Shown here piece by piece: positions 3,976-64,000 of a stretch of 64,000 nt of DNA (its first letter is position 1; each line of letters begins with the position of its first letter). Location of the stretch: positions 73,845 through 137,844 of the forward strand of contig FR903078.1 in assembly GCA_000438195.1 (NCBI GenBank), read 5' to 3'. Under the pieces are notes generated by a model, which did no database searches, was not told the DNA's origin, and worked only from the letters and a program-made list of their open reading frames with translations. Both the position numbers and the translations under genes were made by a program. The DNA is from Mycoplasma sp. CAG:776. GTDB taxonomy: Bacteria > Bacillota_I > Bacilli_A > RF39 > UBA660.

Positions 3976-4008
3976 TTTATTTAAAAAGAAACATGTATTT
4001 AATGTTTC

Positions 4009-4461: not shown

Positions 4462-4464
4462 AAC

Positions 4465-9218: not shown

Positions 9219-9257
9219 CTCAAATAATATTATACAAGATTATAAGCATGAATTCTA

Positions 9258-9623
9258 TTATTTTTCTTTCTTTTCCATTTCTTTTTTGATCCAGGACATA
9301 ATGATATTCACAATATAATCTAATTCCTCTTTTTTTAAGTCTCTTCCTTTGGGAATTTGATACCATTTATAAAGACAACTTCGGCAACAGGTTGCTGTTG
9401 CATGTTCTGCTATAAAAACGGGATGCCCTCTCATAGGTGTTTGTTTTCCATCATTCACAATATATGCTGGAACGAGTCTTTTTTTTAACAAGTCATAAGC
9501 ATGCGTTTTAATTACTTCTAAACCTTTTTCTTTTACATAATTTTTTTCTTTTTCTTTTAAATGAAAACTGCTTCGAAATTTAGATTTTGATAATTTATAT
9601 AATACTTCTTCTATCTGTTTCAT
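9258..9623 (-). CDS. DUF4186-like protein
   Basis: 121 aa; the HPVFIAEHATATCCRSCLYKWY motif is typical of DUF4186 proteins. Confidence 0.65.
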   Translation of the reverse strand: MKQIEEVLYKLSKSKFRSSFHLKEKEKNYVKEKGLEVIKTHAYDLLKKRLVPAYIVNDGKQTPMRGHPVFIAEHATATCCRSCLYKWYQIPKGRDLKKEELDYIVNIIMSWIKKEMEKKEK

Positions 9624-9652
9624 AATTTTAAAAAGATTATCTTTCGATAACC

Positions 9653-10393
9653 TTAACTTCTTGCTCCCCCATCTACTTGCATAATTTCTCCTGTTATATA
9701 ACTTGCCATATCACTTGCTAAAAATAAACAAGCATTCGCAATATCCTCTGGTAACCCTATTCTTCCTAAAGGAATTGTTTTTATTAATGGAGCTATCACT
9801 TCTTCTGGTAAATTAGCGACCATATCGGTTTTGGTTATTCCAGGAGCAACAGCATTAACTCTTATTCCTACTGGTGCTAATTCTCTTGATAAAGATTTTG
9901 TAAGACCATTTACAGCAAATTTAGTCATTGGATATGCACATCCTGCTGGTTGACCATATATGCTTACCATAGATGAAATACTAATAATGGTTCCTTTCGT
10001 TTTTTTTAAATGGGGAACAATCTCTTTAGAACAAATAAATACTCCTTTCATATTTACATTACTAATTTTATCATATTCTTCTACTGTATAATTCTCTATC
10101 TTAGTACTAGAAGACATACCAGCATTATTTAATAAAATATCAATTTTACCAAATTTATTTGCTATTTCTTTAAAAGTTTCCCTTACTTCTATTTCATTTG
10201 CTAGATTAGGATAAAATCCTATTACTTCAAATTTTTCATTTTCTTTTTGCAATTTTGCTATTGCTTCTTCTACACTTTCTTTTTTAGATCCAAATAAAGC
10301 AACCTTTGCTCCATTATGTAAGAATTTTCTTACTATTTCAAACCCTATTCCCCTTGTTCCACCTGTAACTACAGCTATTTTTCCTTCTATCAT
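9653..10393 (-). CDS. Short-chain dehydrogenase/reductase, FabG-like 3-oxoacyl-ACP reductase
   Basis: 246 aa; TGGTRGIG cofactor motif, NNAG, catalytic S...YxxxK (YPMTK). Confidence 0.85.
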   Translation of the reverse strand: MIEGKIAVVTGGTRGIGFEIVRKFLHNGAKVALFGSKKESVEEAIAKLQKENEKFEVIGFYPNLANEIEVRETFKEIANKFGKIDILLNNAGMSSSTKIENYTVEEYDKISNVNMKGVFICSKEIVPHLKKTKGTIISISSMVSIYGQPAGCAYPMTKFAVNGLTKSLSRELAPVGIRVNAVAPGITKTDMVANLPEEVIAPLIKTIPLGRIGLPEDIANACLFLASDMASYITGEIMQVDGGARS

Positions 10394-10487
10394 TTTATCT
10401 ACCCTTTCTATTTATACTTAATCATATTTTTACGCATTAGTCAATCTTTTCACTTGCTATTTGATATTTCTTTACTTTTTTTTATTT

Positions 10488-10796
10488 TCAAAATAGATGC
10501 GCCATAAAGCAAGAATTTATAACCTTAACAAATATTATAATAAATGCTACTATTAATATTAGTCTCATTATAGTTTCTGCTTTTTTAGTTTTTATGTTTT
10601 TTTTACTTATAATAGTTATCAGAGCAGAAATTAAAACAGAAATAATTATTTTAAATAACCAAGCTGATGTAAGATTAGCAATAAAATAATTTAATGGTGT
10701 GGTAATTATCCCAATTATTAATGAAGGTATGAAAAAACTTAAAATTAAATAGCTCTCAATTAAAACCATCATAAATATAAAAATTGTTTTTTTCAT
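10488..10796 (-). CDS. Small integral membrane protein
   Basis: 102 aa with three or four hydrophobic helices. Confidence 0.55.
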   Translation of the reverse strand: MKKTIFIFMMVLIESYLILSFFIPSLIIGIITTPLNYFIANLTSAWLFKIIISVLISALITIISKKNIKTKKAETIMRLILIVAFIIIFVKVINSCFMAHLF

Positions 10797-10878
10797 TTTT
10801 TTACTCCTATTCTATATTCATTTTATTATTCTAATTCTAACATGAATGAATTAACATTAAATTCAATTATTGCTTCTT

Positions 10879-11337
10879 CTATTGTTCAAATAAGTATAAC
10901 AATGGATTAAAATCTTTATTATTTACATTAATTCCTATAGAATAATCTTCATTTAATAAACAGTGTCCTTCATATTCGGCGATTAAGTTATCATTTCCAT
11001 CATAAAACTGGATTAACTTTCCAATATAATTAGTTTCTATTATAAGCTGTAATGTAGCTTTATTTATGACATTTATTATTTTGGCAATTGTTTCTTGATT
11101 CGTTATTACTTGCTTTTCTTTATAAGTCCAACCATCTAATCCTAAAATTTCACCATTATCGTCGTGAACAGCTAAAACGACTTTTTCTGTATTTTGTATC
11201 TCCTCTTTAAAATTGGTTAATATTTTATCTAGTTCTTCTTCTAAATCTTTTTTATGCGTACTTGTACACCCGCTTAGTCCTATTATAAAAAAAGTTAATA
11301 GCAAAAATATCCCTATTCTTTTCATACCTCTACTCAC
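10879..11337 (-). CDS. Lipoprotein, function unknown
   Basis: Signal peptide with lipobox LLTFFIIGLSGC. Confidence 0.7.
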   Translation of the reverse strand: MSRGMKRIGIFLLLTFFIIGLSGCTSTHKKDLEEELDKILTNFKEEIQNTEKVVLAVHDDNGEILGLDGWTYKEKQVITNQETIAKIINVINKATLQLIIETNYIGKLIQFYDGNDNLIAEYEGHCLLNEDYSIGINVNNKDFNPLLYLFEQ

Positions 11338-11406
11338 TTTCTAGTGTCATTATAGCACGAAAAAAGTAGATTGTATAGAACCTACTCTTAGAACTTGTTA
11401 TGTCTT

Positions 11407-12690
11407 TTACTTGCATGTAAGTTTATCTTTTCCACCCATATATGGTTGCAATGCTTTAGGAATTTTTATGCTTCCATCTTTTTGATAATTGTTTTCTAAA
11501 AAGGCAATTAGTCCTCTTGGTGTTGCTAAAACTGTATTATTTAAAGTAGCTACATATTTATTTCCATGTTCTGTTTTCATACGAATTCCAAGACGTCTTG
11601 CTTGAGCTTCACCTAGAGTTGAACAAGATCCTACTTCAAAATATTTTTGTTGTCTTGGACTCCATGCTTCTACATCACATGATTTTACTTTAAGATCAGC
11701 TAAATCACCACTACAACACTCTAAAGTTCTTACAGGTATATCTAAACTTCTAAAGAATTCTACAGTATATTTCCACATCTTATTATACCAATCCATTGCT
11801 TCTTCTGGTTTACAAATTACAATCATTTCTTCTTTTTCAAATTGATGAACACGATATAAGCCTCTTTCTTCTAAACCATGAGCTCCTACTTCTTTTCTAA
11901 AGCATGGTGAATAGGAAGTTAAAGTAATTGGAAGTTCACTTTCTTTTACAATTTCTCCTTTAAATCTACCAATCATAGAATGCTCACTTGTACCTATTAA
12001 AAATAGATCTTCTCCCTCAATTTTGTACATCATCGCATCCATTTCAGCAAAAGACATTACTCCATTTACCACTTCACTTCTGATCATAAATGGTGGAATA
12101 CAATAGATGAACCCTCTATCAATCATGAAATCTCTAGCATATGTTAACATAGCACTATGAAGCCTAGCTATATCACCAGTTAGAAAATAAAAGCCATTGC
12201 CACTAGTTCTTCCAGCTGCTTCTTTATCTAGTCCATTTAATGCCTCGCAAATGTCAGCATGATAAGGGATTTCATAATCTGGTACTAAAGGATTTCCAAA
12301 ACGTTCTAGTTCTACATTTTCAGAATCATCTTTACCAATAGGAACTGAGTCATCAATGATTTGAGGAATTTTCATCATTTTTTCTTTTATCTCATTTTCT
12401 AGTTTTACTTCTTCTGCTTCTAAGTTAGCAATCTTAAAAGATATTGCTCCAACTTGTTCTTTAATCGCTTGGGCTTCTTCTTTTTTACCATTACGCATCA
12501 GCATGCCAATTTGATCACTTAATTTATTTTTTTCGCTTCTTAAGTCATCAGCTTCTTTCTTTGCATTTCGATATTTTAAATCTAATTCATAAATTTCATC
12601 CACTAATGGTATTTTTTCATCTTGAAATTTCTTTTTAATGTTTTCTTTTACTAATTCTCTTTCTTCTCTAATTAATTTAATATCAATCAT
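11407..12690 (-). CDS. serS: Seryl-tRNA synthetase
   Basis: 427 aa; N-terminal coiled-coil arm and class II motifs (YSPCFRKEVGAHG, RVHQFEKEEM, GSCSTLGEAQARRLGIR). Confidence 0.95.
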   Translation of the reverse strand: MIDIKLIREERELVKENIKKKFQDEKIPLVDEIYELDLKYRNAKKEADDLRSEKNKLSDQIGMLMRNGKKEEAQAIKEQVGAISFKIANLEAEEVKLENEIKEKMMKIPQIIDDSVPIGKDDSENVELERFGNPLVPDYEIPYHADICEALNGLDKEAAGRTSGNGFYFLTGDIARLHSAMLTYARDFMIDRGFIYCIPPFMIRSEVVNGVMSFAEMDAMMYKIEGEDLFLIGTSEHSMIGRFKGEIVKESELPITLTSYSPCFRKEVGAHGLEERGLYRVHQFEKEEMIVICKPEEAMDWYNKMWKYTVEFFRSLDIPVRTLECCSGDLADLKVKSCDVEAWSPRQQKYFEVGSCSTLGEAQARRLGIRMKTEHGNKYVATLNNTVLATPRGLIAFLENNYQKDGSIKIPKALQPYMGGKDKLTCK

Positions 12691-12699
12691 TTTCTTTCC

Positions 12700-12940
12700 T
12701 TCTTTCTAAAATAAAAAAGAATGGTTATCTAAAGGAGTCTTTTAGACGGTACCATCCTTTTATTTGCTTAATTTTAATAACGGCTTATCACCGGGGAGGA
12801 TTAGTCCCGCTAGAAAGGAGATTTCATACCATTATTTACTTATTTCCATCAACCATAAGCTTTCTATTAAAATAAATGATATTACTTATCTTTCTTTTGC
12901 TTTACCTTTATAATATACCATAAAATTTTATTTATGACAA
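12700..12940 (-). promoter_or_regulatory. T-box leader (Ser) with promoter and terminator/antiterminator upstream of serS
   Basis: Promoter is TTGTCA (12935-12940), 17 nt, then TGgTATATT. The conserved T-box sequence AAAGGATGGTACCG lies at 12747-12760 on the minus strand. The terminator is GGATGGTACCGTCTAAAAG-ACTC-CTTTAGATAACCATTC followed by a U-run. AGUA and GAAAUCUCC elements in stem I provide a UCU/UCC Ser specifier candidate. Confidence 0.8.
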
Positions 12941-13006
12941 TTATTAATATTAAAAATATATTTGATTTATTAAGATATCTTTATAACATAGAAGTGATCT
13001 GCTGTT

Positions 13007-14566
13007 TTAAATTCTAATTTTAAATGTCTTGGGAGCTAATTTATAAATTAGAATTAGCGATATTAAACTATAAGTAATGGCAAATAAAATCATAGCTAAT
13101 CCAAAATAAAACGTTGGAAGTTGTACCTTAATCATATAATAACAAATTATATAAGTTAACAAATTTACAATTGTATAAGTTACGTTTTTAGTTTCGCTAT
13201 TTATATTGTAAGGTTGTAATAAATAATAAATTACTAAATGATGTACCGAAAAGAAAATGCTCATAGATATAATTGAAACAAATAAAATAATATAATTTAA
13301 AGGATTAGAAGTTCCACCTGTTATGAAAAGTAATAAAGGTAATCCTACTCCTATAATTGTAGCTGGTAATAAATTAACTAAAATAATACTTTTTAATCTT
13401 TCTTTAAATAATTTAAGAATTGCAGCAGGTGTTCGGTAAAAAGCATAAGTTAACAGAGAATGATCACAATTCATGAACATAGCTTTTGTAACGGACTCAC
13501 CTCTATTAATCAAGTACATAATAAAGACAAAATATGGTAAATAGTTCATAATAAGATCATTTATATCTTTTTTCATACTTTGATTCATTGTAATGATTAA
13601 AAATAAAATCCCAAATATTATCATACTAAACATAGCTACTTTCTTAGAACTTTTTAATAATAATTTACTATGTCTTTTGATAAATAATTCATTTAAGTAG
13701 GCAAAGCCTTTTTTCTTACTTGTTAATTTTTTATCAATGCTTATTTGCTTTAATACTGTTTCATTCGCATCTTTTATAGGATCTATACTAGTATCCGTCA
13801 AGACTTTTTTATACATTTCGCGATATTTATTAAATTTTAAAATATATTTAATTGAAAAAAGGCTTCCTAATATACTAATGATCATTATGATAAGCGATAT
13901 CTTCCAAGAAAGAACCATATTAAAGTATGGTAAACCGTATGCTAAAGCTAGTAACAGAAATGTTAATCCCCATAAATATTTAATCGGTTTATTTTCATTA
14001 ATTACAATTCCTTTTTTCTCATAAAGATATAAAGAATAAGATGTTACCATTATTTTTAAAGCAGCTACAAAGAAAGGAACTAAAATGCATATTCCAATAT
14101 TTAATCCTGATAATAAGCCAAAGATAATTGTAAATGGTAAAAAACCAATTATTATTTTTAATATAGCATAAAAATAATTACTTAATGAATAATTTTTCGC
14201 ATCCATCCTCATAATAAACATCGCATAATATTTATCTTTCGTAGGATTAAACATATAAGTATTTAAAAAGGATCCGATTATTGTTAAACAAATTAAAATA
14301 TGGAGAAATGTAGAACTAGTATTTGTATCATACAACATTGTCATATAAAAGATCATTAGAAAAAGATATAAGAATTTCCCTAAAAATATATCCAATAATT
14401 CAAATAAAATACTTATCAAATTTCCGAAAAATTTTAAAACTCTACTCTGATATAATTTATCTTTTAAAATCTTTTTTAAAAATGGTAGACTTTTTATAGC
14501 ATAAATAAAAGTGTTTACTTTATAAGTGTTGCGTAAACGGAATGATAAAAGAAATGTGTGTAGCAT
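13007..14566 (-). CDS. Polytopic membrane protein, probable permease partner of the upstream ABC ATPase
   Basis: 519 aa with at least 10 hydrophobic helices. Its start is 1 nt after the ATPase stop. Confidence 0.65.
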   Translation of the reverse strand: MLHTFLLSFRLRNTYKVNTFIYAIKSLPFLKKILKDKLYQSRVLKFFGNLISILFELLDIFLGKFLYLFLMIFYMTMLYDTNTSSTFLHILICLTIIGSFLNTYMFNPTKDKYYAMFIMRMDAKNYSLSNYFYAILKIIIGFLPFTIIFGLLSGLNIGICILVPFFVAALKIMVTSYSLYLYEKKGIVINENKPIKYLWGLTFLLLALAYGLPYFNMVLSWKISLIIMIISILGSLFSIKYILKFNKYREMYKKVLTDTSIDPIKDANETVLKQISIDKKLTSKKKGFAYLNELFIKRHSKLLLKSSKKVAMFSMIIFGILFLIITMNQSMKKDINDLIMNYLPYFVFIMYLINRGESVTKAMFMNCDHSLLTYAFYRTPAAILKLFKERLKSIILVNLLPATIIGVGLPLLLFITGGTSNPLNYIILFVSIISMSIFFSVHHLVIYYLLQPYNINSETKNVTYTIVNLLTYIICYYMIKVQLPTFYFGLAMILFAITYSLISLILIYKLAPKTFKIRI

Positions 14567-14567
14567 T

Positions 14568-15266
14568 TTAATTTTCCTCTCTTAACATTTCTATAATTTT
14601 TTCTTTTCTTTCTTCCCCTTTTATTTTGCTATCTACTAAGCTTAGAGTCCCATTTTTTAATATTACTATTTCATCGCACAAACTCAATGCAAGATCCATA
14701 ATATGAGTAGAAAAAATTAGAATATGATCTTTTTTGATACCTCTTAACATTTCTTTCATTTCTTCTGCTACTATAACATCTAAGCTTGTTAAGGGTTCAT
14801 CTAGTAATAGAATATTGGGATTAGCTATAATATTTACTAACATTTGCATTTTATTTTTCATACCATGTGAATAATCTTTTAATAATTTATCACGGTCTTT
14901 TTCCTCAATTTTCATAAATTTAAAATACTCATCTATCTCTTTTGGCTCCTTTATTTTGCCTTCATTGATTTCAAGAAAAAATTTTAAAAATTCTCTTCCT
15001 GTTAAGAATTCTGGTACTACGGGAGTCGATAAAACATACCCGATATCCTCAATTGTTAGTGGCCTTGTTTTTCCTTCTTCTTTGATCGTAAAAATGCCAG
15101 TATCTGGTTTAATATCATCATTTAGGCAATTAAAGAATGTTGTTTTTCCAGCTCCATTCCGACCTAACAAACCATATATTTTCCCTTGTTCAAATGTAAA
15201 ATTAATATTCTTTAAAATTTCTTTATTATCAAAACTTTTCTTTAAATTTATTACTTCTAATTGCAT
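14568..15266 (-). CDS. ABC transporter ATP-binding protein
   Basis: Walker A GRNGAGKTT, signature-like YSHGMKNK, Walker B LLLDEPLTSLD. Confidence 0.9.
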   Translation of the reverse strand: MQLEVINLKKSFDNKEILKNINFTFEQGKIYGLLGRNGAGKTTFFNCLNDDIKPDTGIFTIKEEGKTRPLTIEDIGYVLSTPVVPEFLTGREFLKFFLEINEGKIKEPKEIDEYFKFMKIEEKDRDKLLKDYSHGMKNKMQMLVNIIANPNILLLDEPLTSLDVIVAEEMKEMLRGIKKDHILIFSTHIMDLALSLCDEIVILKNGTLSLVDSKIKGEERKEKIIEMLREEN

Positions 15267-15292
15267 ATAAACTCCTTTTTTCTAACTTTTAA

Positions 15293-15832
15293 TTAACTGC
15301 GTTTTTGGGCTTCATGATTTAAAAAGTTATAGAAACTTAATTCTTCATCCCAATATTTAGCATTTAAAAATTCTATTAGTGTACTTTCTTCATCTAAAGA
15401 TAATGTAATCTCAGGATTAAAATAAATATGGGTTCCATCACTAACCAATAGATTCCCTTCTGATGATGATTTTAACTTAGCAAAACTACTTAAATATACT
15501 TTTTTAATTTCAGGTAAACTTAGATAGGCAAGAAATAACATTTTATTTATTTTATTAGTTCTAAGATTTTTTAGATATTCTATGTGACTTAGTCTACTTT
15601 TTATTTCTTTATTTAAACTATGACAAATTCCTTTTAAATTATTCGCTGTTATTTCACAATATTCTTGAAAACTCATATATTCTAAACAGGTATCTTGATT
15701 TTGATATGCTATATCACTTTCAAAAGTTTTTTGAATCATTTCTAAATAATATTGTTGGATATTTTCTATTTCTTCATTATACTTTGTCATTAATTTATTT
15801 ATTATTTCTATTTCATCAAAAATGTTCATCAT
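15293..15832 (-). CDS. Hypothetical protein
   Basis: 179-aa ORF; no recognisable motif. Confidence 0.55.
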   Translation of the reverse strand: MMNIFDEIEIINKLMTKYNEEIENIQQYYLEMIQKTFESDIAYQNQDTCLEYMSFQEYCEITANNLKGICHSLNKEIKSRLSHIEYLKNLRTNKINKMLFLAYLSLPEIKKVYLSSFAKLKSSSEGNLLVSDGTHIYFNPEITLSLDEESTLIEFLNAKYWDEELSFYNFLNHEAQKRS

Positions 15833-15889
15833 AACTCATCACCTGATAAACTCATTATAAAAGATATATTTTTAAATGGCAAGAAAAAA

Positions 15890-16312
15890 CTATTTTAGTT
15901 TTTCTAAAATAGCTCGTTCTATTCCTTTTAATGGCAAGTTGGCACAGACTTTTCTATTTCCCTGCTTACTAACTTCCTTGTAAGCTACCGCCTCTTTTAA
16001 TATTTCAGAATTAAAGTTATCTCCATTTGTCATTTGATAAAATTCATGGATATAAGCTAAAGCTTCTTCATTAGTTTTATCAATTAAATTTTTAATCATA
16101 ATAGAGGTGGAAGATATCGAAATAGCACAGGCTTCGCCATCAAAAGTGATATCTTCAATTTTATTGTTATTCCATTTAATATATAAATTAATATTATCAA
16201 TACAAGATTCGTTTCGGGTATTTACTTTAACATATCCTTCATGAGGAAAATCTCTATTTACAGGATGAAGATAATTTTCCATAATTATTTTTCTTGACTC
16301 TTCTATATTCAT
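15890..16312 (-). CDS. sufU: SUF-type Fe-S cluster sulfur-transfer/scaffold protein SufU
   Basis: 140 aa with IscU/SufU-like Cys pattern (ESCIDNI..., GEACAISISSTS, RKVCANLP). It lies immediately downstream of sufS. Confidence 0.85.
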   Translation of the reverse strand: MNIEESRKIIMENYLHPVNRDFPHEGYVKVNTRNESCIDNINLYIKWNNNKIEDITFDGEACAISISSTSIMIKNLIDKTNEEALAYIHEFYQMTNGDNFNSEILKEAVAYKEVSKQGNRKVCANLPLKGIERAILEKLK

Positions 16313-17508
16313 TAAATCATCTCTTTTACTATCTTATCATAATTACTTAATAATTCTACTAAATCATCGATTTCTTCATAAGTATTATAAAAATATAAAC
16401 TAATTCGTACTGTATTATTTACACCAACACTTGATTTTAATATTTTCGCACAGTGATTTCCTGCTCTAACACAAATATTATATTTATTTAAGTAATATGC
16501 TACATCTTGACTAAATATATTTGAAACATTAAAGGTTACAATTCCACTATCACTTTCAATATTAATGATATCAATATGCTTTAAAGGGAGTAATTTGTCT
16601 ACCAAATATTTTCTTAAACTCAATTCATATTTATGAATATTATCCATACCTATTTTGTTTAAATATCTAATCGCTTCGCCTAATCCTATTACACCCGCTA
16701 TATTTCTGGTTCCCGCTTCTAATCTAGTAGGTAGTTCCTTTAAATATATTTCCTCTGGATTATCAAAAGATTCATTCATTCCACCTCCTAGAACTGTTGG
16801 TTCTAAGTGTTCTAATAATTCTTTTTTTCCATATAAAATTCCTACTCCTGTTGGACCACACATTTTGTGAGCCGAAAAAGCTAAAAAATCAACATCTAAA
16901 TCTTTTACATCTATTTTCATGTGAGGAGCCATTTGAGCAGCATCTAATACTACAAAAATATTATTTTCATGAGCAAGTTTACAAATTTCTTTTATTGGCC
17001 TAATATCACCAATTACATTGGTAATTCCAGCGATACTTATTACTTTCGTCTTAGGAGTTATCACTTTTTTTAAATTATCTATTGTTAAATAATAATTACT
17101 ATCTAAAGGAATATAATTTATTTCTATATTATTTTTTTTTACCAACCGAAACCATGGTAAAATATTAGAGGCATGTTCACTAGTAGTAAGTAAAACTTCA
17201 TCATTTGCTTCAAATAGATTAGCAAAGAAACCATCTACTATCATATTTAGAGAATCTGTTGTTCCATTCGTAAATATAATCTCTTCTAAATACTCAGCAT
17301 TAATAAATTCTTTCACTAAATTTCTTGTTTCTTCATATTCTTGATCTACTTTATAAGATAAATCATAGTCTCCTCGATGAGCATTTGCCGGATAATTTGT
17401 ATAATAGTCTGTTATTTTATCAATTACGCACTTTGGCTTTAAGCTTGTGGCACTATTATCAAAATATATAATATCCTCTTTTAATAAAGGAAAATCTTCT
17501 CTATTCAT
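16312..17508 (-). CDS. sufS: Cysteine desulfurase, SufS family
   Basis: 398 aa; PLP-lysine motif FSAHKMCGPTGVGILYG, catalytic-loop RAGNHCA. Confidence 0.9.
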   Translation of the reverse strand: MNREDFPLLKEDIIYFDNSATSLKPKCVIDKITDYYTNYPANAHRGDYDLSYKVDQEYEETRNLVKEFINAEYLEEIIFTNGTTDSLNMIVDGFFANLFEANDEVLLTTSEHASNILPWFRLVKKNNIEINYIPLDSNYYLTIDNLKKVITPKTKVISIAGITNVIGDIRPIKEICKLAHENNIFVVLDAAQMAPHMKIDVKDLDVDFLAFSAHKMCGPTGVGILYGKKELLEHLEPTVLGGGMNESFDNPEEIYLKELPTRLEAGTRNIAGVIGLGEAIRYLNKIGMDNIHKYELSLRKYLVDKLLPLKHIDIINIESDSGIVTFNVSNIFSQDVAYYLNKYNICVRAGNHCAKILKSSVGVNNTVRISLYFYNTYEEIDDLVELLSNYDKIVKEMI

Positions 17509-17578
17509 CGTTCACCTCCAGTTTTCTATTGTATTTTATTCCATTTATAAAATAGTACTTATAATATTCGCCTTTTTA

Positions 17579-18385
17579 TTATTCGATATTAATTCTTCTG
17601 CTTCGTTCATATAGCTTATTTATCTCATCTGAAAAATCTATATTTGTTTCCGTTCGATAATTTAAAATATGGATTTCATTTGTTCCATTTGGCACTCCAC
17701 TTATTCTTATAATTAAATTGTTACTTATTGAACTTAGTGTATATCTTTCAACAAAGCCTTCTTTAATTATAAGTTCATCTACTAAAATGATTTTATTCTC
17801 CTCGGTTATTTCCTTTACTGATATATGTGTTAAACATTGTTTTTCGTAAACATTTTGATTTTCAAAAAAACGTCTCATATATAGCCTTTTTAAATCTATA
17901 ATTGTAGTATTTTTATTTATTGTGTTGAAACAATGAGGATCTAAATAGTAATCAATATCATAGGGAATTATAAAACTATAAATTCTATTTTCGATTTCGA
18001 TTTCTATTTTAATTTGATGTGCATCAAGAATTTGGGTTATTGTTCTATCTTTTTCTTTTATTTTATATTTTTCTAACCGAGCAAAGTACTGCCTATCTGT
18101 CCAATCTGTAAAAAAAGTATACTCTTGATTTTCATTTTTAATTATTAAACGTTCATTTAAAATTATTAAAATTAAATTTTTGCTATTCGCAGTTGCTCTA
18201 AATTCAATTTCACCTGTTTTTTCGCTTAATAGCTCTAAATAATAATTTTTACTACCTAAAAAGGAAAGAATAAATTGACTTGCTATTTTTAACATGTTTT
18301 GATAATTTCTTATTATTTCATTTATTTCGCTATTATAAATGAAAGGTAAAAAATCTTGACTTTTAAAAGTATAATCTTTTCTCAT
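17579..18385 (-). CDS. Hypothetical protein
   Basis: 268-aa ORF; no recognisable motif. Confidence 0.55.
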   Translation of the reverse strand: MRKDYTFKSQDFLPFIYNSEINEIIRNYQNMLKIASQFILSFLGSKNYYLELLSEKTGEIEFRATANSKNLILIILNERLIIKNENQEYTFFTDWTDRQYFARLEKYKIKEKDRTITQILDAHQIKIEIEIENRIYSFIIPYDIDYYLDPHCFNTINKNTTIIDLKRLYMRRFFENQNVYEKQCLTHISVKEITEENKIILVDELIIKEGFVERYTLSSISNNLIIRISGVPNGTNEIHILNYRTETNIDFSDEINKLYERSRRINIE

Positions 18386-56608: not shown

Positions 56609-57358
56609 TTAATTTAATTTTAACAAATGTTGCCAAGTATACATTTTGGCAGATACTTTTCCATCTTGATATTTACTAGCTAGACCTACATCACTCTGAT
56701 ACTTTTTAATGCAGGCTTTCATGTCCTTACCAAACTCACCATCTACTCCACAGCTTCCTAAATCATAGCCTAGACTTTGTAAGTAAATTTGAAGTGGTTT
56801 TACTGCTTTATGATTCCAACCTGTTCCGGTGGAAATCGTTGGGGTTTTTGATAAGGTTTCGGCCCCTGCAATACCATCAACATTTGCACCAATTACACTT
56901 TGTAAATCTCTAACAAAAGTAGTGTAATTATCATTAACTTTATTAAAAGGATTTTCATTTGTTAAATATGGTAATGGATCTACATATCCGTTTTTATAAA
57001 TGGCAAAATGTAAGTTATTTCCTGTAGCATTTCCTGTTTTACCCATAGTAGCTATTACTTCTCCTTTTACTACATTATCACCTTTTTTTACTTTAATTGA
57101 TCCTTCTTTTAGATGAAAATAGCGATGCTCTATTCCGTTAGTTGTAATAGCAATCCAATAGCCACCGCCACTAGAGTCATATCCAACATAAGTTACTGTT
57201 CCGTTTTCAATCGCTACAATATCATCTACCCCATTTGCTCCTACTAAATCCATTCCATTATGGGTACTTCGATTTTCATTTCTGGTTTTATAATCACTAG
57301 TTACATAGTGCTTTCCACCTTTTAAAACATTATTCTTCACGTTCAGTAGTGCCATCAA
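56609..57358 (-). CDS. M23 peptidase fused to a PG_binding_1 domain (peptidoglycan hydrolase, endolysin-like)
   Basis: 249 aa; M23 motifs HNGMDLVG and GNNLHFAIY. C-terminal KPLQIYLQSLGYDLGSCGVDGEFGKDMKACIKKYQSDVGL is a peptidoglycan-binding repeat. No signal peptide is evident. Confidence 0.85.
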   Translation of the reverse strand: MMALLNVKNNVLKGGKHYVTSDYKTRNENRSTHNGMDLVGANGVDDIVAIENGTVTYVGYDSSGGGYWIAITTNGIEHRYFHLKEGSIKVKKGDNVVKGEVIATMGKTGNATGNNLHFAIYKNGYVDPLPYLTNENPFNKVNDNYTTFVRDLQSVIGANVDGIAGAETLSKTPTISTGTGWNHKAVKPLQIYLQSLGYDLGSCGVDGEFGKDMKACIKKYQSDVGLASKYQDGKVSAKMYTWQHLLKLN

Positions 57359-57722
57359 TATCCTCCTCTCCTATAATTCCTTCTAATGTTTCATAGATTT
57401 TCTTTGGTAGAGGAAGACCCATTTTACACCAACATTTTAAAATAATTAATCCTTCATGAGCAATAAAGAAATAAATTACTAATGTTCTTATTGCTTCACT
57501 ACTTCCCATGATATTATCTAATAATACGGATAATGATACGACCATTAAATAACCTAGACTACGTATTAATCCTTTTAAGCCTACTAATTTATTCATCTTA
57601 TGACAAAATATCACTTTACACCAACCTGTAATATAAACATATAACATTACAATTAATAAAACAATAATTGGCTTATCTATTCCTCCTAATAAGTAAGAGA
57701 AAACATTATATATATGTTCCAT
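57330..57722 (-). CDS. Holin (Phage_holin_4_1 / TcdE-UtxA-like family)
   Basis: 130 aa; three TM helices. YVYITGWCKV...LVGLKGLIRSLGYLMVV...FFIAHEGLIILKCWCKMGLPLPKKI parallels the family pattern DYITG...SK.G.KG...ANE.lSIlEN...GvPiP. Overlaps the hydrolase gene by 29 nt. Confidence 0.75.
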   Translation of the reverse strand: MEHIYNVFSYLLGGIDKPIIVLLIVMLYVYITGWCKVIFCHKMNKLVGLKGLIRSLGYLMVVSLSVLLDNIMGSSEAIRTLVIYFFIAHEGLIILKCWCKMGLPLPKKIYETLEGIIGEEDIDGTTEREE

Positions 57723-57978: not shown

Positions 57979-58554
57979 TTAATCATAGGGAATATTTGAA
58001 AAAACACTACTCCAATTTTCATTTATTATATTTTCTTCAATTATTCCATAATCATATTTTATATATTCATTTTTTGATGATATAAAATAGTAATTGTAAT
58101 AAACATCATAGTATGTTGTTATATATAAGTAAAATGCAATATAGTCATTTCTTCTACCAACAATTGAAAGATTTGTTTTTACAAAAGTTTCCACAATATC
58201 TTTGATTGGTAGATTTTCTATCTTTTTAGAAGTACACACTTCCATTCCATGATAATCATATTTATGATCATTAGCATTAGAACACCAAATATTTTTTCCT
58301 ATTCTATCTAATTCTGGATATTCTATAAAATAATTTACTAATTCATTTAAATATTCTTCATTTTCTTGAAAATACTCTAAACGTTTTTCTTTGCTTTCAT
58401 ATTCCATAGCTTTTTTATCAATAATATTCTCTTTAAGACCATCACCTAAAAATATCACTATTATTGTTATTGGAAATATAAGTAATGCAATTATTAGAAT
58501 TATTATACTAACAATTATTATTTTCTTTCTATTTATTTTTAAAAATTGCATCAT
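57979..58554 (-). CDS. Membrane-anchored hypothetical protein (candidate immunity/orphan module)
   Basis: 191 aa; one N-terminal TM then a Tyr/Asn-rich domain. 4-nt ATGA overlap with the upstream gene. Confidence 0.55.
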   Translation of the reverse strand: MMQFLKINRKKIIIVSIIILIIALLIFPITIIVIFLGDGLKENIIDKKAMEYESKEKRLEYFQENEEYLNELVNYFIEYPELDRIGKNIWCSNANDHKYDYHGMEVCTSKKIENLPIKDIVETFVKTNLSIVGRRNDYIAFYLYITTYYDVYYNYYFISSKNEYIKYDYGIIEENIINENWSSVFSNIPYD

Positions 58555-59345
58555 CTTTTATTGCCTTTATTTTCTAGTTCTAAAATTATTTTTATTTCTT
58601 TTTTTAATTGATTAAACTGCATTAAGCCAAATCCTTCTATTTCATTTGGTATATACATTTTGTTTCCTCCAAAAGATACCCCTATTGGTAATTTGTAATA
58701 TCTTTTATCTTGATCTAATGTATTAATAAAGCGATTAAACATGGAACTCATTCTATCTACACTGATTATAATTGTTATAAATAATTCATACCTCATACTT
58801 TTCTTCGCCTGATTAAAATCTTGTTCTATTATAGGAAATATCTCTTTCTCATACAATTCATTGAAGTTTTCTTCGGTTAATTCTTCTAATCGAGCATCAA
58901 TTATATAATAATTTTTCCTTTTTATCACTTTATGATATATTTTTAAGCTATCATTTGTATATTTTTCTTCATAGTTAAATATTTTTATTCTTTTATTTAG
59001 ATGATTACTAAAATCAAGATAATTATCTTGTTTTAATAAATACTTATCTGGCTTGGGTGGTTTAATGTTGCCATATACTATTAAAAAATAAAATAGCGAA
59101 GTGAAATAAAAAAAGCTAAAAATTATTGAATATAATACAATGGATAAATTATTTAATTTGCTATCAAAAAAGAAAATTATAATAATTAATGTAATAAACA
59201 AAATTGAAGATAGTAACACAAAAAATTTAATTAAATTTAGTTTTTGAATACTTTTTAATCTATTATCGATAATTTTAAAAGTTATAAAACTTGTAAATAA
59301 TATTAAGAATATGATTAATAATATATAAAACTTATTAATGGTCAT
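58551..59345 (-). CDS. Polytopic membrane protein (candidate cognate immunity protein of the Rhs toxin)
   Basis: 264 aa; 3-4 N-terminal TM helices plus a cytoplasmic domain. It is the first gene downstream of the Rhs C-terminal toxin domain. Confidence 0.55.
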   Translation of the reverse strand: MTINKFYILLIIFLILFTSFITFKIIDNRLKSIQKLNLIKFFVLLSSILFITLIIIIFFFDSKLNNLSIVLYSIIFSFFYFTSLFYFLIVYGNIKPPKPDKYLLKQDNYLDFSNHLNKRIKIFNYEEKYTNDSLKIYHKVIKRKNYYIIDARLEELTEENFNELYEKEIFPIIEQDFNQAKKSMRYELFITIIISVDRMSSMFNRFINTLDQDKRYYKLPIGVSFGGNKMYIPNEIEGFGLMQFNQLKKEIKIILELENKGNKR

Positions 59346-59399
59346 ATATTTTCACCATTTAAAATATAACATATATTATTTTAAATGTAAAATATTTTA

Positions 59400-59438
59400 T
59401 AATAATAAAAATGAAATCTTTTATGTTTTGATTTCATT
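59400..59438 (-). terminator. Rho-independent terminator after the Rhs gene
   Basis: Stem AAATGAAATC/GATTTCATTT followed by a U-rich tract on the minus-strand transcript. Confidence 0.6.
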
Positions 59439-59448
59439 TTATTTTGCA

Positions 59449-62400
59449 TTAAGAGAAAAGCTTTTTAAAGAATGATTTTACTTTTTTCTTTACAGAATTA
59501 TATGTTTTCTTTACAAAAGACGCAGCTTTTTTTACTGTTTTTCCTATATCTGTAGCTATACTTGTTGTTGTTGAGACTATTGTGTTCTTAGCAATTTTCT
59601 TTGTATAGTTACCTGTAAATGAAGTTTTAATTTTTGTAGGTCTTATCCATCCCTTATTTAATGGAACTATTTTATCTGCAAATTTTCCTGTTGCCATTCC
59701 AATTGTTCCATTTACTGCTGTATCCACTGCAATTTCTTTTAATGAATTTCCTGAAATTGTACTCTCAATAAATGAACTTCCATAATTACTTAGTATAGTC
59801 CCTCCAACAGTAAAACCTAATGGTGTGGTTGCAATTAATCCTGAAAATGCTCCACCTAAAGCAGAGGCGCCTACTTCTTTCCAATAATCTGTACCACTTG
59901 CAGAACTCGTAAGCATAGTAGACAAAGCAGATATTGCTCCACCTATAAGTGCTCCAGCTATCTGGAACCAAAATTCCCCTTCTACATCTATCCTACTTGT
60001 TGGGTTATTTCCTGTATAAGCATACATATTGCTAGAATTAACATCTTGTTCTGTATCTATGTAAATATCGGCACTAATAAATCTTCCCCACTCTGGATTA
60101 TAGTATCTACTATTTAAATAATATAACTTTGTTTCATTATCATAATAGTATGATCTATATCTAAATGGATTAATATATCCTATATGAGATGTATCAGTAA
60201 TAATAGTGTTGTTATTATCTTTAATAGATATTAATTTTCCCCATGAGTTATATTCATAACTACATAATAAATTATAATTACTATCTGTTATTCCTATGAT
60301 ATCTTCTTGCATATTCTTAATATAATAATATATTGTATCATTATATTTAAATCCTATTAATTTGTTGTTATTGTCTCTAATATAATATGTTTTATTATTT
60401 CCAGTTGTTTCAAAGATTATATTTCTTGCTTCATAATAATAATTTGTTATTATGTTATTAACTGTCTTTCCTAATCTTAAACTTTCATTATCATATCTAT
60501 ATGTAATATTTAAATTATTATCATAATCATTATAACTTCTCATCTCTTTGGCATTACCCCAAGTTAGTGTTTTGTTTCCTATGGTTAATGGATTACCTAA
60601 TTCATCATAAGTAATTGTTTCATTGTTATATTTTGTTAATTGATCTTCCCAATTAGTGTTATTATATTCATAAGTATCAGTATGTAAGAGATTATAAGTA
60701 TTTAATTCATATTCTTGTTTCTTTAAGATATTTCCCGCATTATCATAAGTATATCTTATTGTTTTATTTAAACTATAGTTATCTTCTTTAATCAGTTCAT
60801 TAAAGTTATCATATTCATAATGATTGATTAATTTTTTATTTATATAAATATTGGTGATATTATATAAATTATCATAATCATATTCATATAAATCATTATT
60901 TATCTTCATTGATTTTAATACTGTAGATGTTTTATTACCGTTTGTTATGTAGGTATATTCTACTTTGTTATTACCGTTTATATCTTTACTTATTAACCTT
61001 CCTAGATAATCATAACTATAATTTAGATTATTATTATCAAATGTTACTTTGGTTATTGCATCATCTTTGTTGTATTCGAAAGTTACTGTTTCTTTATCAT
61101 TTAATGTATAATCTTTTTTAATAATATTATTATTTGCATTATAATCATATTCAATCATAAAATCATTCGCTACGTATTTACTTATTCTGGAAGATAAGTC
61201 ATAATAAAAATCATAGTTTTCAGCATTACTTGTTATTTTAGCTAAATTTCCTAAATTATCATAATGATATGTATAAATTGTATCATCATTATTAATTGAT
61301 TTAAGTCTATCTAATTCGTCATAAGTATAGTTTGTTATATCCCCATTTCCAAAAGTTGTTTTGATTAAATTTCCGTTTTTTTCTTCATACTCATTACTAA
61401 CTAAATTGTTATTGTTAATATTAATTGTTAAAGTATTTAAGAAATTGTCATAAGTAAAATTATATTCTTTATTATTCGATGTAATTTTCGTTAGTGCATT
61501 ATTGTCATTATAAGTATAGTTTACTTCTTTTTCTTCTTTCTTTACTTTGGTTATTTGCTCTTTATCATTATAAGTATAGTAAGTTGTTATGTTATTAGCG
61601 TCTGTAACACTATTAGTAAGTCCATTTATTTCATTAACATCGTAACTTGTTTCTTTACCTAAAGAGTCAATTGTTTTAGTTGTAAATCTACCATCATTAG
61701 TATATTCAGCTTTTGATTCAATAAATAAGCGTGTATCATTATCTTCAAAGTAGAACTCTTCATCTGATTTAGATGTATCTGTAGTTTTTATTGTTATTTT
61801 ATCATTTATATTCGCTAAATTATAGTTTTCTAAATCAATTGATGTTCCTCCTTCTTCATCTGTTTTGATATATTTTAGTTTTGGTGTAATTAAATAACTA
61901 TTATTATCATTTAGATGTAAGTTAAATAATGTTTCCTCTCCTGTTTGTTTTGTTAAACTAATATTATTGTTTAAATATGTTAAATATTTATCTCCTGTTT
62001 TAATACGGTAATATTCTCCTTCTTTTAGTAAAGTAAAGGCATCATGACTACAAGTATTTTCTTTTAAATTAATTTCATTGGTTAAAAAATCACAATCCCA
62101 GTATTTTTTAGAACCTTTTAGGCGAATATAATAGTTTTTTTGATCTATAATATCTTGATCGGGATTTACATTATTAATGAGTGTTTTGATTGGGTTACCA
62201 AATTCATCATATTCAATTTCATTTGATATTCCTGATGGTGATATTCCTTTTAATATACGGTCTGTAACATTATTATCATATTCAAACTTAAAATTATTAC
62301 CTAAAGGATTAAACATACTAATTAATTGATTATTTTCGTCATAAGTAAAAGTTGTATTCGTTCCATCTGCATTCCTAATCTTATCTAAATTACCAGTTTC

Positions 62401-64000
62401 ACTATTATTATAATTATAATTTTGCTCTATATCTTTTGATAAAGATATATTAGCTATATATAAATTATTAGCATTATAATTTGAAAAGAAAGTTAAAGCA
62501 ATGGTATCATAGTTATATAAGCTATCAGCAGCAAAAGGCGCAGAAAAATATTGCCATTCATCATTGTGAGCTGGAAGTCCTGATGGAACTAACCCATATC
62601 CTTCTTCTTCGGGTATATTGTTATAATAGAAACTTAATAAGACTGAGTTATTATATTCGGTTCCTGTTCCTCCTTTGGATAATCCTTCATTTTTATACCA
62701 AAATGATAAATTATATAAATCTCCTATTCGATCTTCTGATAAATCTCCTATACCGTTTACTTTTAACTTTGTAGATACTGCAATATCGTAATCAGGATTA
62801 GAAGATATTTTTAAAGCTTTTACACCATTATTTAATGTTACTACATCAATAGCTGTTGAGGCATCATTTCCATTTCTATCTGTTGCTGATACTTCCCAGT
62901 CTGTTAAATCATTATGGAAATCTCCATTATCAAGCATATTATAGTAATTAGCTATTCTTCCTTCTTCTAATTGAACATCATCTAAGTATGCTGTAGTGTC
63001 TTTATCTCCATAAATACTAATAGACATGTGCCCTGTTTCTCCATCTGTTGGATACTCTCCTGTTACGCTATATCTAGTAAATTCTTCATTTGGTGGTATT
63101 ATTATGCTATCTAAAACGTAAGTCTTGTTTACTCCCCTCTTTTCTAAATCCATTGTTAGAGGTTTATCATTTTTAAAATAACCACTAAAAGTATAAGTTT
63201 TACCACTTGGTGGAAAATTTAGTTGTTCAAAATAGCAATAGTTACTAAATTTCAAACTATAGTTTCCTGTCCTTTTTTCTTCCGTTGTTCTTGTACCCCA
63301 AAATGGTGTATTTTCTTCTTCAAAGCTACTATTTTTCAATAAATTTTTAGTATATTTTACTGCTAGAATTTCATTTTTTATTTTATTGTTTGCTTTATTT
63401 ATATCTTCAAAATAATTTCCATTACTTTCTTTATATACGGTATTATCTTCATAAACTGTTCCTTTACCATAAGCTTTATTTAAATCAGCTTCACTACTTA
63501 AATTAGTTATTCCTATAGTATTTCCTTGTTCATTAAAAAGATAAGTATTATATCTTTCTTTATTATCTTTTACTCTTGTTACTAAAAAACCATATTCAAA
63601 TTCTAAGGAAGTTCCTTCTTCACTATTTAATCCATATTCTGTTATTTTCTTTATTTTATATGGACTTACATCATAATATGTAAACCCTTTACTTAGGCCA
63701 TTTACATCTGTTATTTTTTCTAATAAATTATTACTATTATAAGTAAAACTTGTTGTACCATTTTTCGTTATCATATTCATTATCTTATTATTAGAATAAT
63801 TTATAGTAGTAGTTTTACTATCACTCGTAATTACCATATTATTATCATTATAAGTAATATTAATATTAGAGTTATTGGCATCTGTTACCTTATTAATTCT
63901 ATTATTTGTATCATAAGTAATTGATACTGTATCTTCATTAGTATTAATTAATTTAGTTAAATAATAAATATTATTATTTAATGTAAATATATATTTATTA
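59449..64000 (-). CDS. Rhs/YD-repeat polymorphic toxin (WapA-like), partial: N-terminus lies beyond the window end
   Basis: More than 1500 open codons. The frame stays open from 63837 to 64000 (…ITYDTNNRINKVTDANNSNINITYNDNN-MVITSDS). There are dozens of YD repeats (Y.YD..GN), CBM-like inserts, and the Rhs core end RYYNPEWGRFISAD...YAYTGNNPTSRIDVEGEF, followed by a 173-aa C-terminal domain. Confidence 0.9.
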   Translation of the reverse strand, partial: NKYIFTLNNNIYYLTKLINTNEDTVSITYDTNNRINKVTDANNSNINITYNDNNMVITSDSKTTTINYSNNKIMNMITKNGTTSFTYNSNNLLEKITDVNGLSKGFTYYDVSPYKIKKITEYGLNSEEGTSLEFEYGFLVTRVKDNKERYNTYLFNEQGNTIGITNLSSEADLNKAYGKGTVYEDNTVYKESNGNYFEDINKANNKIKNEILAVKYTKNLLKNSSFEEENTPFWGTRTTEEKRTGNYSLKFSNYCYFEQLNFPPSGKTYTFSGYFKNDKPLTMDLEKRGVNKTYVLDSIIIPPNEEFTRYSVTGEYPTDGETGHMSISIYGDKDTTAYLDDVQLEEGRIANYYNMLDNGDFHNDLTDWEVSATDRNGNDASTAIDVVTLNNGVKALKISSNPDYDIAVSTKLKVNGIGDLSEDRIGDLYNLSFWYKNEGLSKGGTGTEYNNSVLLSFYYNNIPEEEGYGLVPSGLPAHNDEWQYFSAPFAADSLYNYDTIALTFFSNYNANNLYIANISLSKDIEQNYNYNNSETGNLDKIRNADGTNTTFTYDENNQLISMFNPLGNNFKFEYDNNVTDRILKGISPSGISNEIEYDEFGNPIKTLINNVNPDQDIIDQKNYYIRLKGSKKYWDCDFLTNEINLKENTCSHDAFTLLKEGEYYRIKTGDKYLTYLNNNISLTKQTGEETLFNLHLNDNNSYLITPKLKYIKTDEEGGTSIDLENYNLANINDKITIKTTDTSKSDEEFYFEDNDTRLFIESKAEYTNDGRFTTKTIDSLGKETSYDVNEINGLTNSVTDANNITTYYTYNDKEQITKVKKEEKEVNYTYNDNNALTKITSNNKEYNFTYDNFLNTLTININNNNLVSNEYEEKNGNLIKTTFGNGDITNYTYDELDRLKSINNDDTIYTYHYDNLGNLAKITSNAENYDFYYDLSSRISKYVANDFMIEYDYNANNNIIKKDYTLNDKETVTFEYNKDDAITKVTFDNNNLNYSYDYLGRLISKDINGNNKVEYTYITNGNKTSTVLKSMKINNDLYEYDYDNLYNITNIYINKKLINHYEYDNFNELIKEDNYSLNKTIRYTYDNAGNILKKQEYELNTYNLLHTDTYEYNNTNWEDQLTKYNNETITYDELGNPLTIGNKTLTWGNAKEMRSYNDYDNNLNITYRYDNESLRLGKTVNNIITNYYYEARNIIFETTGNNKTYYIRDNNNKLIGFKYNDTIYYYIKNMQEDIIGITDSNYNLLCSYEYNSWGKLISIKDNNNTIITDTSHIGYINPFRYRSYYYDNETKLYYLNSRYYNPEWGRFISADIYIDTEQDVNSSNMYAYTGNNPTSRIDVEGEFWFQIAGALIGGAISALSTMLTSSASGTDYWKEVGASALGGAFSGLIATTPLGFTVGGTILSNYGSSFIESTISGNSLKEIAVDTAVNGTIGMATGKFADKIVPLNKGWIRPTKIKTSFTGNYTKKIAKNTIVSTTTSIATDIGKTVKKAASFVKKTYNSVKKKVKSFFKKLFS

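Follow-up and report, generated by a model that had tools for sequence, protein, structure and literature searches.

What does the segment behind the Rhs core of a large YD-repeat protein do when no database recognises it? The question is raised by an Rhs gene at the end of a 64,000-nucleotide stretch of DNA from Mycoplasma sp. CAG:776 (contig FR903078.1, positions 73,845 to 137,844; hereafter the window), whose product ends in a tail of 173 residues. We compared this tail and the neighbouring genes with sequence, profile and structure databases and with homologous loci (L001-L050; P-numbers such as P0005 denote family proteins). The tail and the gene that follows it (58551-59345) very probably form a toxin/immunity pair of a polymorphic Rhs system, and we put the probability that the tail kills by permeabilising membranes at roughly 0.5. 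The kind of system is known: a polymorphic Rhs toxin whose helical tail putatively acts on membranes, together with an immunity protein in the membrane. New are the toxin and immunity families, and neither they nor their Gram-positive Rhs context were described in Pfam, NCBIfam, PDB or the literature searched.

The Rhs carrier and its C-terminal domain

The features that define the carrier and the tail are as follows.

59449..64000, minus strand: Rhs/YD-repeat protein, at least 1516 codons in the window, 5' end beyond the window edge
59971..60252, minus strand: Rhs-associated core (aspartyl autoprotease plug), containing GRFISAD and NPTSRIDVEGEF and retaining the autoprotease Arg and both Asp
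59452..59970, minus strand: putative C-terminal toxin domain of 173 residues (174 if cut after DVEGE), an undescribed, Rhs-restricted family

The Rhs open reading frame ends at a TAA codon (59449-59451, minus strand) and remains open up to base 64000, the ATG at 63837 being internal; the gene is therefore cut by the end of the window. Full-length relatives are about 2050 residues long (2046 for P0005). The window has a G+C content of 27%, and its closest genomic relatives are uncultured gut Bacilli, among them Candidatus Caccenecus avistercoris. The shell was recognised by RHS_repeat (PF05593, E 1.2e-19) in the Pfam scan and by YD_repeat_2x (TIGR01643, E 5.2e-23) in the NCBIfam scan. A previous inspection of this DNA by a model that saw no databases (the sequence-only reading) had the shell close with a canonical Rhs core, and this was borne out: TIGR03696 scored above its cut-off (59.7 bits against 32.5, E 2.9e-16) at residues 1196-1287 of the translation, and the match stops two residues ahead of DVEGEF.

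A search of PDB sequences with the last 210 shell and core residues (59911-60540) returned the solved Rhs proteins 8h8a, 8qja, Tse5 (8cp6_B) and Tse15, together with the mosquito Rhs-like proteins SGS1 (8fjp) and SGS4 (9on3). The core alignment to the solved Rhs proteins spans RYYNPEWGRFISAD and YAYTGNNPTSRIDVEGEF, with GRFISAD and IDVEG both aligned. The Rhs autoprotease residues are one Arg and two Asp (PMC9935623, PMC10684867), and Tse5 is cut directly after the L of its DPxGL motif (PMC10684867). Because the core is conserved, cleavage of the tail by the core is likely; by analogy with Tse5 it would be expected after DVEGE, between the E and the F of DVEGEF, and the fragment would have 174 residues with F as the first. 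The boundary proposed earlier thus holds in its placement after the Rhs core and shifts by one residue at its start, while the 173-residue translation given then is reproduced exactly by codons 59452-59970.

The tail itself had no match above threshold in Pfam, NCBIfam, PHROGs or PDB, in sequence or profile searches, and a Pfam scan of 49 family members found no toxin family and no family shared among them. The same scans do detect AHH and Ntox44 in neighbouring Rhs tails and so serve as positive controls. In an alignment of the 49 sequences (A1, mean column identity 26%), Asp, Glu, His, Cys and Ser are invariant at no position. With no Pfam or NCBIfam toxin match and no catalytic residue set, the earlier statement that the tail lacks nuclease, deaminase and ADP-ribosyltransferase motifs agrees with our results.

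HMMER, run exhaustively over 1.84 billion representative proteins, identified 93 clusters at E <= 1e-3 (14 at E <= 1e-10), and we take the size of the family to be at least 93 clusters at 50% identity. A profile search of a 5.8-billion-protein set found 103 proteins in which the Pfam domains were solely those of Rhs shells, and the sole name that any source gives these proteins is 'hypothetical protein'. The metagenome scan used a six-sequence sub-alignment of the family. No homologue of the tail was found in the plasmid and phage collections. Upstream sequence was long enough in 50 representatives, and in 46 of these the Rhs core directly precedes the domain; of the remaining four, three are fragments or chimeric gene calls and one is a false positive. 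The domain is terminal throughout, 0-67 variable residues separating the match from the end of the protein. The exception, P0061 (616 residues, three matched stretches), was rejected as a false positive caused by a short GDFTDKIIPLNPG repeat.

Hidden Markov models (HMMs) of the N-terminal half (residues 1-74) and the C-terminal half (75-145) co-occur in 151 of 192 proteins, and almost all of the rest are truncated reading frames. The domain is therefore one evolutionary unit and not a delivery module shuffled among toxins. The idea that the conserved segment is a pre-toxin linker, with the true toxin placed after the zipper in relatives, was likewise discarded, as the family match is terminal and the halves are inseparable. 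The Gly-rich segments ahead of the AHH and Ntox44 toxins are not homologous to the N-terminal half of the family (E >= 0.69).

Two further kinds of tail were observed during these comparisons. In L018 and L019 (10001-11227, Pseudobutyrivibrio), the Rhs core is separated from a PT-HINT domain by hydrophobic, Gly/Ala-rich helices of about 100 residues, and in L019 an AHH nuclease follows the PT-HINT domain; hydrophobic Gly-rich helices right after the Rhs cleavage site are therefore common in the Rhs tails of Bacillota. In L028 (3450-4703), the N-terminal half of an orphan Rhs tip matches the family (E 4e-11) and its C-terminal half falls below significance. This tip may be a very divergent family member or a rare recombinant.

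Immunity genes and exchange of toxin tips

The region downstream of the Rhs gene holds two small genes and two candidate regulatory elements.

58551..59345, minus strand: putative cognate immunity protein of 264 residues, with three N-terminal transmembrane helices and an alpha/beta domain of about 170 residues
57979..58554, minus strand: putative orphan immunity gene, 191 residues, one transmembrane helix, overlapping the cognate immunity stop by 4 bp
59408..59440, minus strand: A/U-rich hairpin followed by a U-run (weak terminator or attenuator), minimum free energy -8.5 kcal/mol, z = -3.08 against shuffles
59363..59391, minus strand: sigma-70-like site TTTACA-17-TATATT with an extended TG, 10/12 matches (consensus match only)

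The immunity gene starts 103 bp downstream of the toxin, and the sigma-70-like site just upstream of it is the best promoter match of the region. Members of the same immunity family lie directly downstream of family toxins in L001, L002, L003, L027-L032, L034 and L045. Those in L001 and L002 are 62-63% identical to the window protein and that in L045 is 49% identical, and the homologues in L003, L027-L032 and L034 adjoin toxins that are about 30% identical to the window toxin. An HMM built from the distant clade only scores the window immunity protein at E 3.4e-18 (Z = 1e6). The toxin-immunity pairing is therefore conserved across the whole breadth of the family.

In immunity proteins of this main clade, a K(P/S)xKP linker joins two or three N-terminal transmembrane helices to a soluble domain, about 170 residues long, in which the motifs ELT.E, VDR(I/M)(S/T)..F and G(I/V)SFGG.K.Y are present. 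The AlphaFold2 model of the window protein (mean predicted local distance difference test, pLDDT, 73) has transmembrane helices at residues 5-29, 32-59 and 68-91 and an alpha/beta domain. The model had no Foldseek match, and 40 immunity homologues had no Pfam domain and no name.

Both 58551-59345 and 57979-58554 had been suggested previously as immunity candidates. The first is co-conserved with the toxin, as described above. The second was rejected as another cognate immunity gene; its product is 76% identical to that of the gene directly behind a different Rhs tail in L004 and L006, and this tail is an Ntox44 domain (E 6.6e-14). On this sequence relationship, 57979-58554 is most simply read as an orphan immunity gene kept after an exchange of the toxin tip. 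It is translationally coupled to the cognate immunity gene.

Orphan copies of the family, with their own immunity genes, also sit in arrays behind the main Rhs gene in L045 and L047, which is a hallmark of polymorphic toxins. The L045 array (1938-18350) begins with the main Rhs gene (2061 residues) and continues with orphan Rhs tips, each followed by a small gene. Five of these tips carry TEN_YD-shell matches in Pfam, and one belongs to the toxin family described here and has an immunity homologue next to it. Upstream of the Rhs gene in L045 is a gene for a protein with a Gp10_C domain (phage baseplate; E 1.4e-13).

Comparison of the window (about 59553 to about 58966) with L050 (1-1400), which holds the truncated orphan toxin fragment P0004, revealed mosaic DNA identity. 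Identity is about 50-60% in the toxin core and rises to 77-93% from about 59553, over a stretch that covers the Lys-rich tail, the intergenic region and the 5' half of the immunity gene, which encodes the transmembrane helices. This pattern indicates a recombination breakpoint inside the toxin tail.

Our assignment of the tail and its downstream gene to a toxin/immunity module follows from the position of the tail behind the autoprotease, its polymorphism, the orphan arrays, the co-conserved immunity gene and the breakpoint within the tail. The same observations bear on the reading in which the tail serves a surface Rhs protein by anchoring it in the membrane or filling its shell, and has nothing to do with the downstream gene. 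That hydrophobic helices directly follow the core would suit such a role, and SGS1 stores helices in its Rhs shell without proven toxicity (PMC9935623). However, this reading would have to account for a polymorphic domain beyond an autoproteolytic site, for orphan tips in arrays with a matching small gene after each, for a downstream gene that co-varies with the domain over wide divergence and for a recombination breakpoint that ties the tail to the immunity gene. We consider it highly improbable.

Possible action of the tail at membranes

Three segments of the tail are needed to discuss how it might act.

59830..59967, minus strand: helices 1 and 2 (residues 2-25 and 29-47), a small-xxx-small (glycine-zipper) hairpin of borderline transmembrane hydrophobicity
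59536..59748, minus strand: conserved C-terminal half (residues 75-145), with a loop motif at 59596-59658
59452..59541, minus strand: Lys-rich amphipathic C-terminal helix (residues 144-173), lineage-specific

AlphaFold2 run on alignment A1 predicted an all-helical tail with confidence (pLDDT 85.4; predicted template modelling score, pTM, 0.72) with helices at residues 2-25, 29-47, 55-72, 77-101, 114-119 and 121-172. The A1 consensus reads W..AGA..GG..G.....SN...G.....GV.GA..GGAV.G ... A.Y..A..ES..NE in its N-terminal part and, after a variable insert, DT..NGT.....G..A.....N.GWFKP.K..S.FTG.YA.K...Q. Within helices 1 and 2 and the turn between them, the most conserved positions are A/S36 (100%), G40 (98%), N22 (96%; Ser in the window protein), G26 (90%), G/S14 (87%), G10 (86%) and G44 (80%). 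Transmembrane propensity was judged from Kyte-Doolittle windows. The family median of the maximum over 17 residues is 1.69 for helix 1 and 1.61 for helix 2, which is the classical transmembrane threshold; helices 3-5 are amphipathic and far below it.

The tail is also strongly basic, with 22 K+R against 7 D+E and a net charge of +13 beyond Y122. The family is net basic in 42 of its 49 aligned members (mean +6). The Lys-rich C-terminal helix has a hydrophobic moment of 0.5-0.6 and a negative mean hydrophobicity. We rejected this helix as a hallmark of the family, since C-terminal tails vary over the family and the Lys-rich form is present in close relatives only; the very basic tail noted earlier is thus a genuine property of this protein and a lineage-specific one.

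A search with the tail model by Foldseek found nothing in PDB (best E 2.1) or BFVD (best E 0.64), and the top PDB rows were mostly unrelated integral membrane helical proteins. We counted the lack of an enzymatic fold match in these two sets in favour of a membrane-acting tail. Taken together, the Rhs cargo position, the absence of an enzymatic signature, the helical hairpin and the membrane immunity protein fit a membrane-acting toxin, and they partly support the pore-forming or membrane-depolarising toxin suggested in the sequence-only reading.

On this basis we propose the following sequence of events. The YD shell would enclose the tail, and the Rhs core would cut it at DVEGEF. The Rhs protein would leave the producer and bind a neighbouring cell; relatives of the Rhs protein carry carbohydrate-binding and SH3 modules. 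The released Gly/Ala-rich hairpin of helices 1 and 2 would then insert in the cytoplasmic membrane of the target, where the small-xxx-small faces would permit tight helix packing or oligomerisation and the loop residues W108, P111, K113, Y122 and K125, together with the cationic amphipathic helices, would lie at the anionic interface. Ions would leak and the membrane potential would be lost. The membrane-anchored product of 58551-59345 would protect the producer and its kin, a pairing supported by the co-conservation of the two genes.

Several observations weigh against membrane permeabilisation. Three strict glycine-zipper motifs occur in the tail, starting at residues 6, 36 and 40 and all inside predicted helices, and this count is within the expectation from composition (shuffle mean 1.06, P = 0.11). 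We accept the zipper as real because its positions are conserved across 49 diverged relatives, not because of the motif count; the glycine-zipper helices of the sequence-only reading hold as motifs in conserved helices and do not exceed chance by number alone. The hydrophobicity of the window protein is borderline, with a 19-residue maximum of 1.53 and 17-residue maxima of 1.79 for helix 1 and 1.28 for helix 2. Profile searches against PDB gave marginal matches of helices 1-3 to the Tim17-family proteins OEP16-3 (E 1.4e-3) and NDUFA11-like (E 2.5e-3). The Pfam scan of the 49 members (E <= 0.1) listed 20 families, of which none is Tim17, and Foldseek aligned the tail to 7zm7_J with a template modelling score of 0.36 (E 3.1). 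Homology to Tim17/Tim22/Tim23/OEP16/NDUFA11 was rejected as weak, confined to two helices, unsupported by Pfam and located in a compositionally biased region, and these matches are treated as a compositional resemblance between Gly-rich membrane helices.

The tail is best conserved in its non-hydrophobic C-terminal half and not in the zipper. The loop motif of this half, N105-x-G-W108-x-x-P111-x-K ... F118-x-G120-x-Y122-x-x-K125 (in fuller form N-x-G-W-F-K-P-x-K ... S-x-F-T-G-x-Y-A-x-K), has P111 and Y122 invariant and W108 (94%), K/R125 (94%), G120 (88%) and N105 (86%) nearly so, a pattern suggestive of a specific site for binding or catalysis. In the immunity protein, positive-inside counts of K+R are 4.9 in the loop between transmembrane helices 1 and 2, 4.3 in the segment after helix 3 and 1.5 in the loop between helices 2 and 3, and the soluble domain is accordingly predicted on the cytoplasmic side from sequence. 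In addition, a sub-clade (L035 4216-4650, L037 4543-4929, L041 695-1084), whose toxin variant carries the motif F.KPYGQKIL, has a second type of immunity protein that is soluble, 128-144 residues long and devoid of a transmembrane helix or a Pfam match. The cytoplasmic immunity domain and the soluble sub-clade fit a target or a step on the cytoplasmic side.

These points raise the main alternative, a two-part toxin, in which the zipper hairpin is an entry device, the C-terminal half (about residues 75-145) acts on an intracellular or inner-leaflet target and depolarisation is not the killing event. Besides the conservation of the C-terminal half and the two kinds of immunity protein, it can call on hydrophobic Gly-rich helices that precede real enzymes elsewhere (PT-HINT with AHH in L018/L019, Ntox44 in L004) and on the type VI secretion (T6SS) DNase Tde1, whose translocation is reported to require a glycine zipper (PMC10240207). 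However, the C-terminal half has about 70 residues, is helical and lacks invariant catalytic-type residues and any fold or family match, and the N-terminal half is essentially confined to partnership with this C-terminal half and is not modular; the co-occurrence of the halves in 151 of 192 proteins is the reason why we do not regard the hairpin as a shuffled delivery module. Moreover, depolarisation is proven for EsxX, and yet its zipper is sequestered by the soluble immunity protein ExiAB (PMC12744356); a soluble immunity protein is therefore no argument against a membrane mechanism. We regard the two-part toxin as possible but unlikely.

The conserved loop, rich in W, K, Y and P, could instead face outward. 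The tail would then anchor in the outer leaflet, and the target that the loop sequesters or attacks would be lipid II, a teichoic-acid precursor or a membrane protein, in a manner likened to lantibiotic docking or to TelC/colicin M. The membrane anchor of the immunity protein and the overall basic charge of the family would suit such an envelope toxin, and one family protein of 326 residues (P0029) bears an extra C-terminal PG_binding_1 domain (about residues 262-326, E 1e-8) behind the toxin domain, which hints at envelope action. However, the tail resembles neither TelC nor ColM nor any hydrolase and lacks invariant catalytic residues, and the predicted place of the immunity protein's soluble domain is the cytoplasm, apart from a target of this kind. 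An envelope target appears improbable to us, and membrane permeabilisation remains the reading that we carry into the comparisons below.

Candidate release genes and known systems

Two genes downstream of the immunity genes may concern the release of the Rhs protein.

57330..57722, minus strand: TcdE-type holin (PF05105 Phage_holin_4_1, E 3.6e-24; TIGR01593, 53.9 bits against a cut-off of 40.2)
56609..57358, minus strand: M23 peptidoglycan endopeptidase with PG_binding_1 (Peptidase_M23, E 9.7e-22; PG_binding_1, E 1.2e-12)

The holin gene lies directly downstream of the immunity genes with no evident prophage around it and is overlapped by the M23 gene; TIGR01593 is described as 'toxin secretion/phage lysis holin'. 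The same pair follows the Rhs loci in L002 (3937-5053), L004 (1618-2737) and L006 (11522-12641), with M23 copies that are 84% identical, and the toxin tip differs in L004 and L006 despite the same holin and hydrolase pair. In L045 (19184-20350), a holin_4_1 gene with a CHAP/LysM hydrolase closes the array of orphan Rhs tips. In L003 (3930-4475, Lachnospiraceae), an Rhs gene with a toxin of this family has its start codon overlapped by a holin_4_1 gene (E 2.5e-27), and in L007 (4083-4403) and L047/L048 (2693-2987) an unrelated holin_5_2 gene lies upstream of the Rhs gene. The association thus involves two unrelated holin families in at least four configurations. Neither the holin-linked Rhs proteins nor the closest full-length relative, P0005, has an N-terminal hydrophobic signal. 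Between the holin_5_2 and Rhs genes we also observed a gene for a protein of 269-306 residues (L007 4396-5295, L047 2989-3798, L048 2988-3908), with a nucleotidyltransferase (Polbeta/NTP_transf_2) domain in L007 and L048.

The recurrence of holins beside Rhs genes without signal peptides suggests holin-dependent release of Gram-positive Rhs toxins. Such release is reported as established for TcdA/TcdB of C. difficile and for the Tc toxins of Yersinia, in which an Rhs cocoon is present; the literature searched contained no such report for antibacterial Rhs proteins of Gram-positive bacteria. The combined proposal, in which a new family of membrane-inserting toxins rides on a signal-peptide-less Rhs carrier released by a TcdE-type holin/hydrolase cassette (type-10-like), is put forward tentatively and is in our judgement still rather doubtful.

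Rhs toxins of gut Bacillota are almost unstudied, and the window offers a complete module, in which a toxin and its cognate immunity gene are joined by an orphan immunity gene and a cassette that is a candidate for release. If the membrane mechanism is true, the module would be a Gram-positive, Rhs-borne counterpart to Tse5, with a new membrane-toxin fold of about 170 residues and a new immunity family, and about 100 Rhs tails now called 'hypothetical' in gut metagenomes of humans and animals would gain a family annotation, as would their immunity genes. With its immunity domain apparently in the cytoplasm, the module would then pose the problem of how a cell is protected from a membrane toxin on the inner side. 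The association with holins could account for the exit from Gram-positive cells of Rhs proteins of at least 200 kDa that have no signal peptide. The type-10-like route has so far been described solely for clostridial large toxins and Gram-negative Tc toxins, and Gram-positive interbacterial Rhs proteins would, if the proposal is true, extend it.

Like the window system, WapA of Bacillus subtilis and other characterised Gram-positive Rhs toxins combine a large, wall-associated protein of YD repeats with a C-terminal toxin that is polymorphic and with an immunity gene next to it. WapA carries tRNases as its tails and has a signal peptide, whereas no nuclease signature is present in the window tail and most full-length relatives of the window protein are without a signal peptide. 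For characterised Gram-positive Rhs/WapA proteins, a membrane toxin is uncommon, as the sequence-only reading had stated; beyond them this does not hold, as glycine-zipper depolarisers are known in type VII secretion systems (T7SS) (PMC12744356) and in the Gram-negative Rhs protein Tse5 (PMC10684867).

Membrane-inserting helices carried in an Rhs shell have precedents in Tse5 (PMC10684867) and in SGS1, whose structure has predicted transmembrane helices stored inside the shell (PMC9935623). The match of the window core to SGS1 (8fjp, E 8e-8) ties with that to the bacterial 8h8a, followed by SGS4 (9on3, E 6e-7), and the SGS alignment runs past DPDGEF into the first Gly-rich hydrophobic helix to end within about 15 residues of the tail. 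SGS1 and SGS4 differ in being eukaryotic and in having no immunity gene. Tse5 of Pseudomonas aeruginosa (PA2684) and its immunity protein Tsi5 share with the window system an Rhs cocoon, an aspartyl autoprotease core, a hydrophobic or amphipathic helical fragment of about 150-170 residues and a membrane-bound immunity protein. The C-terminal fragment of Tse5 (Tse5-CT), whose insertion is spontaneous, makes pores selective for cations (PMC10684867, PMC12744356). Between the toxin domains of Tse5 and the window protein, neither sequence nor fold similarity was detected. Tse5 is delivered by the T6SS, via a PAAR domain, into Gram-negative prey, whereas the window system has a Bacillota host without a T6SS, a much larger Rhs protein and an adjoining holin gene, and its immunity protein differs from Tsi5 by a large conserved soluble domain.

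Among Gram-negative toxins, no match to the colicin pore-forming domain PF01024 was found by Pfam in the tail or 49 relatives, and no colicin fold by Foldseek. Pore-forming colicins bury a hydrophobic hairpin among amphipathic helices. The contact-dependent inhibition (CDI) ionophores (CdiA-CT of EC93-like groups) resemble the window toxin in that they are small and helical, have a putative glycine-zipper helix and are countered by immunity proteins integral to the membrane (PMC11630599). Both groups differ from the window toxin in their Gram-negative hosts and receptor-dependent entry domains.

The LXG toxins EsxX and TelE of the T7SSb, together with TspA, share a Gram-positive host and C-terminal helices with extended glycine zippers, and they depolarise membranes (PMC12744356). 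Immunity to TspA and EsxX is provided by the polytopic membrane proteins TsaI and ExiCD, respectively, and for EsxX also by soluble zipper-binding proteins (PMC12744356), so that the two immunity types of EsxX parallel the two types in the window toxin family. Immunity proteins of Tse5, TspA, EsxX (ExiCD) and the CDI ionophores are likewise membrane-embedded (PMC12744356, PMC11630599). EsxX, TelE and TspA differ from the window toxin in their LXG/T7SS delivery, as opposed to Rhs, and in a zipper placed near the C-terminus, which in the window toxin is N-terminal and is followed by the conserved non-hydrophobic half. No chain of Tse5-CT, TspA, EsxX or TelE was among the PDB matches at E <= 10 (phmmer and profile), TspA and TelE not having been compared directly. 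It is thus in logic, and not in sequence, that the window toxin matches Tse5, EsxX, TelE and TspA.

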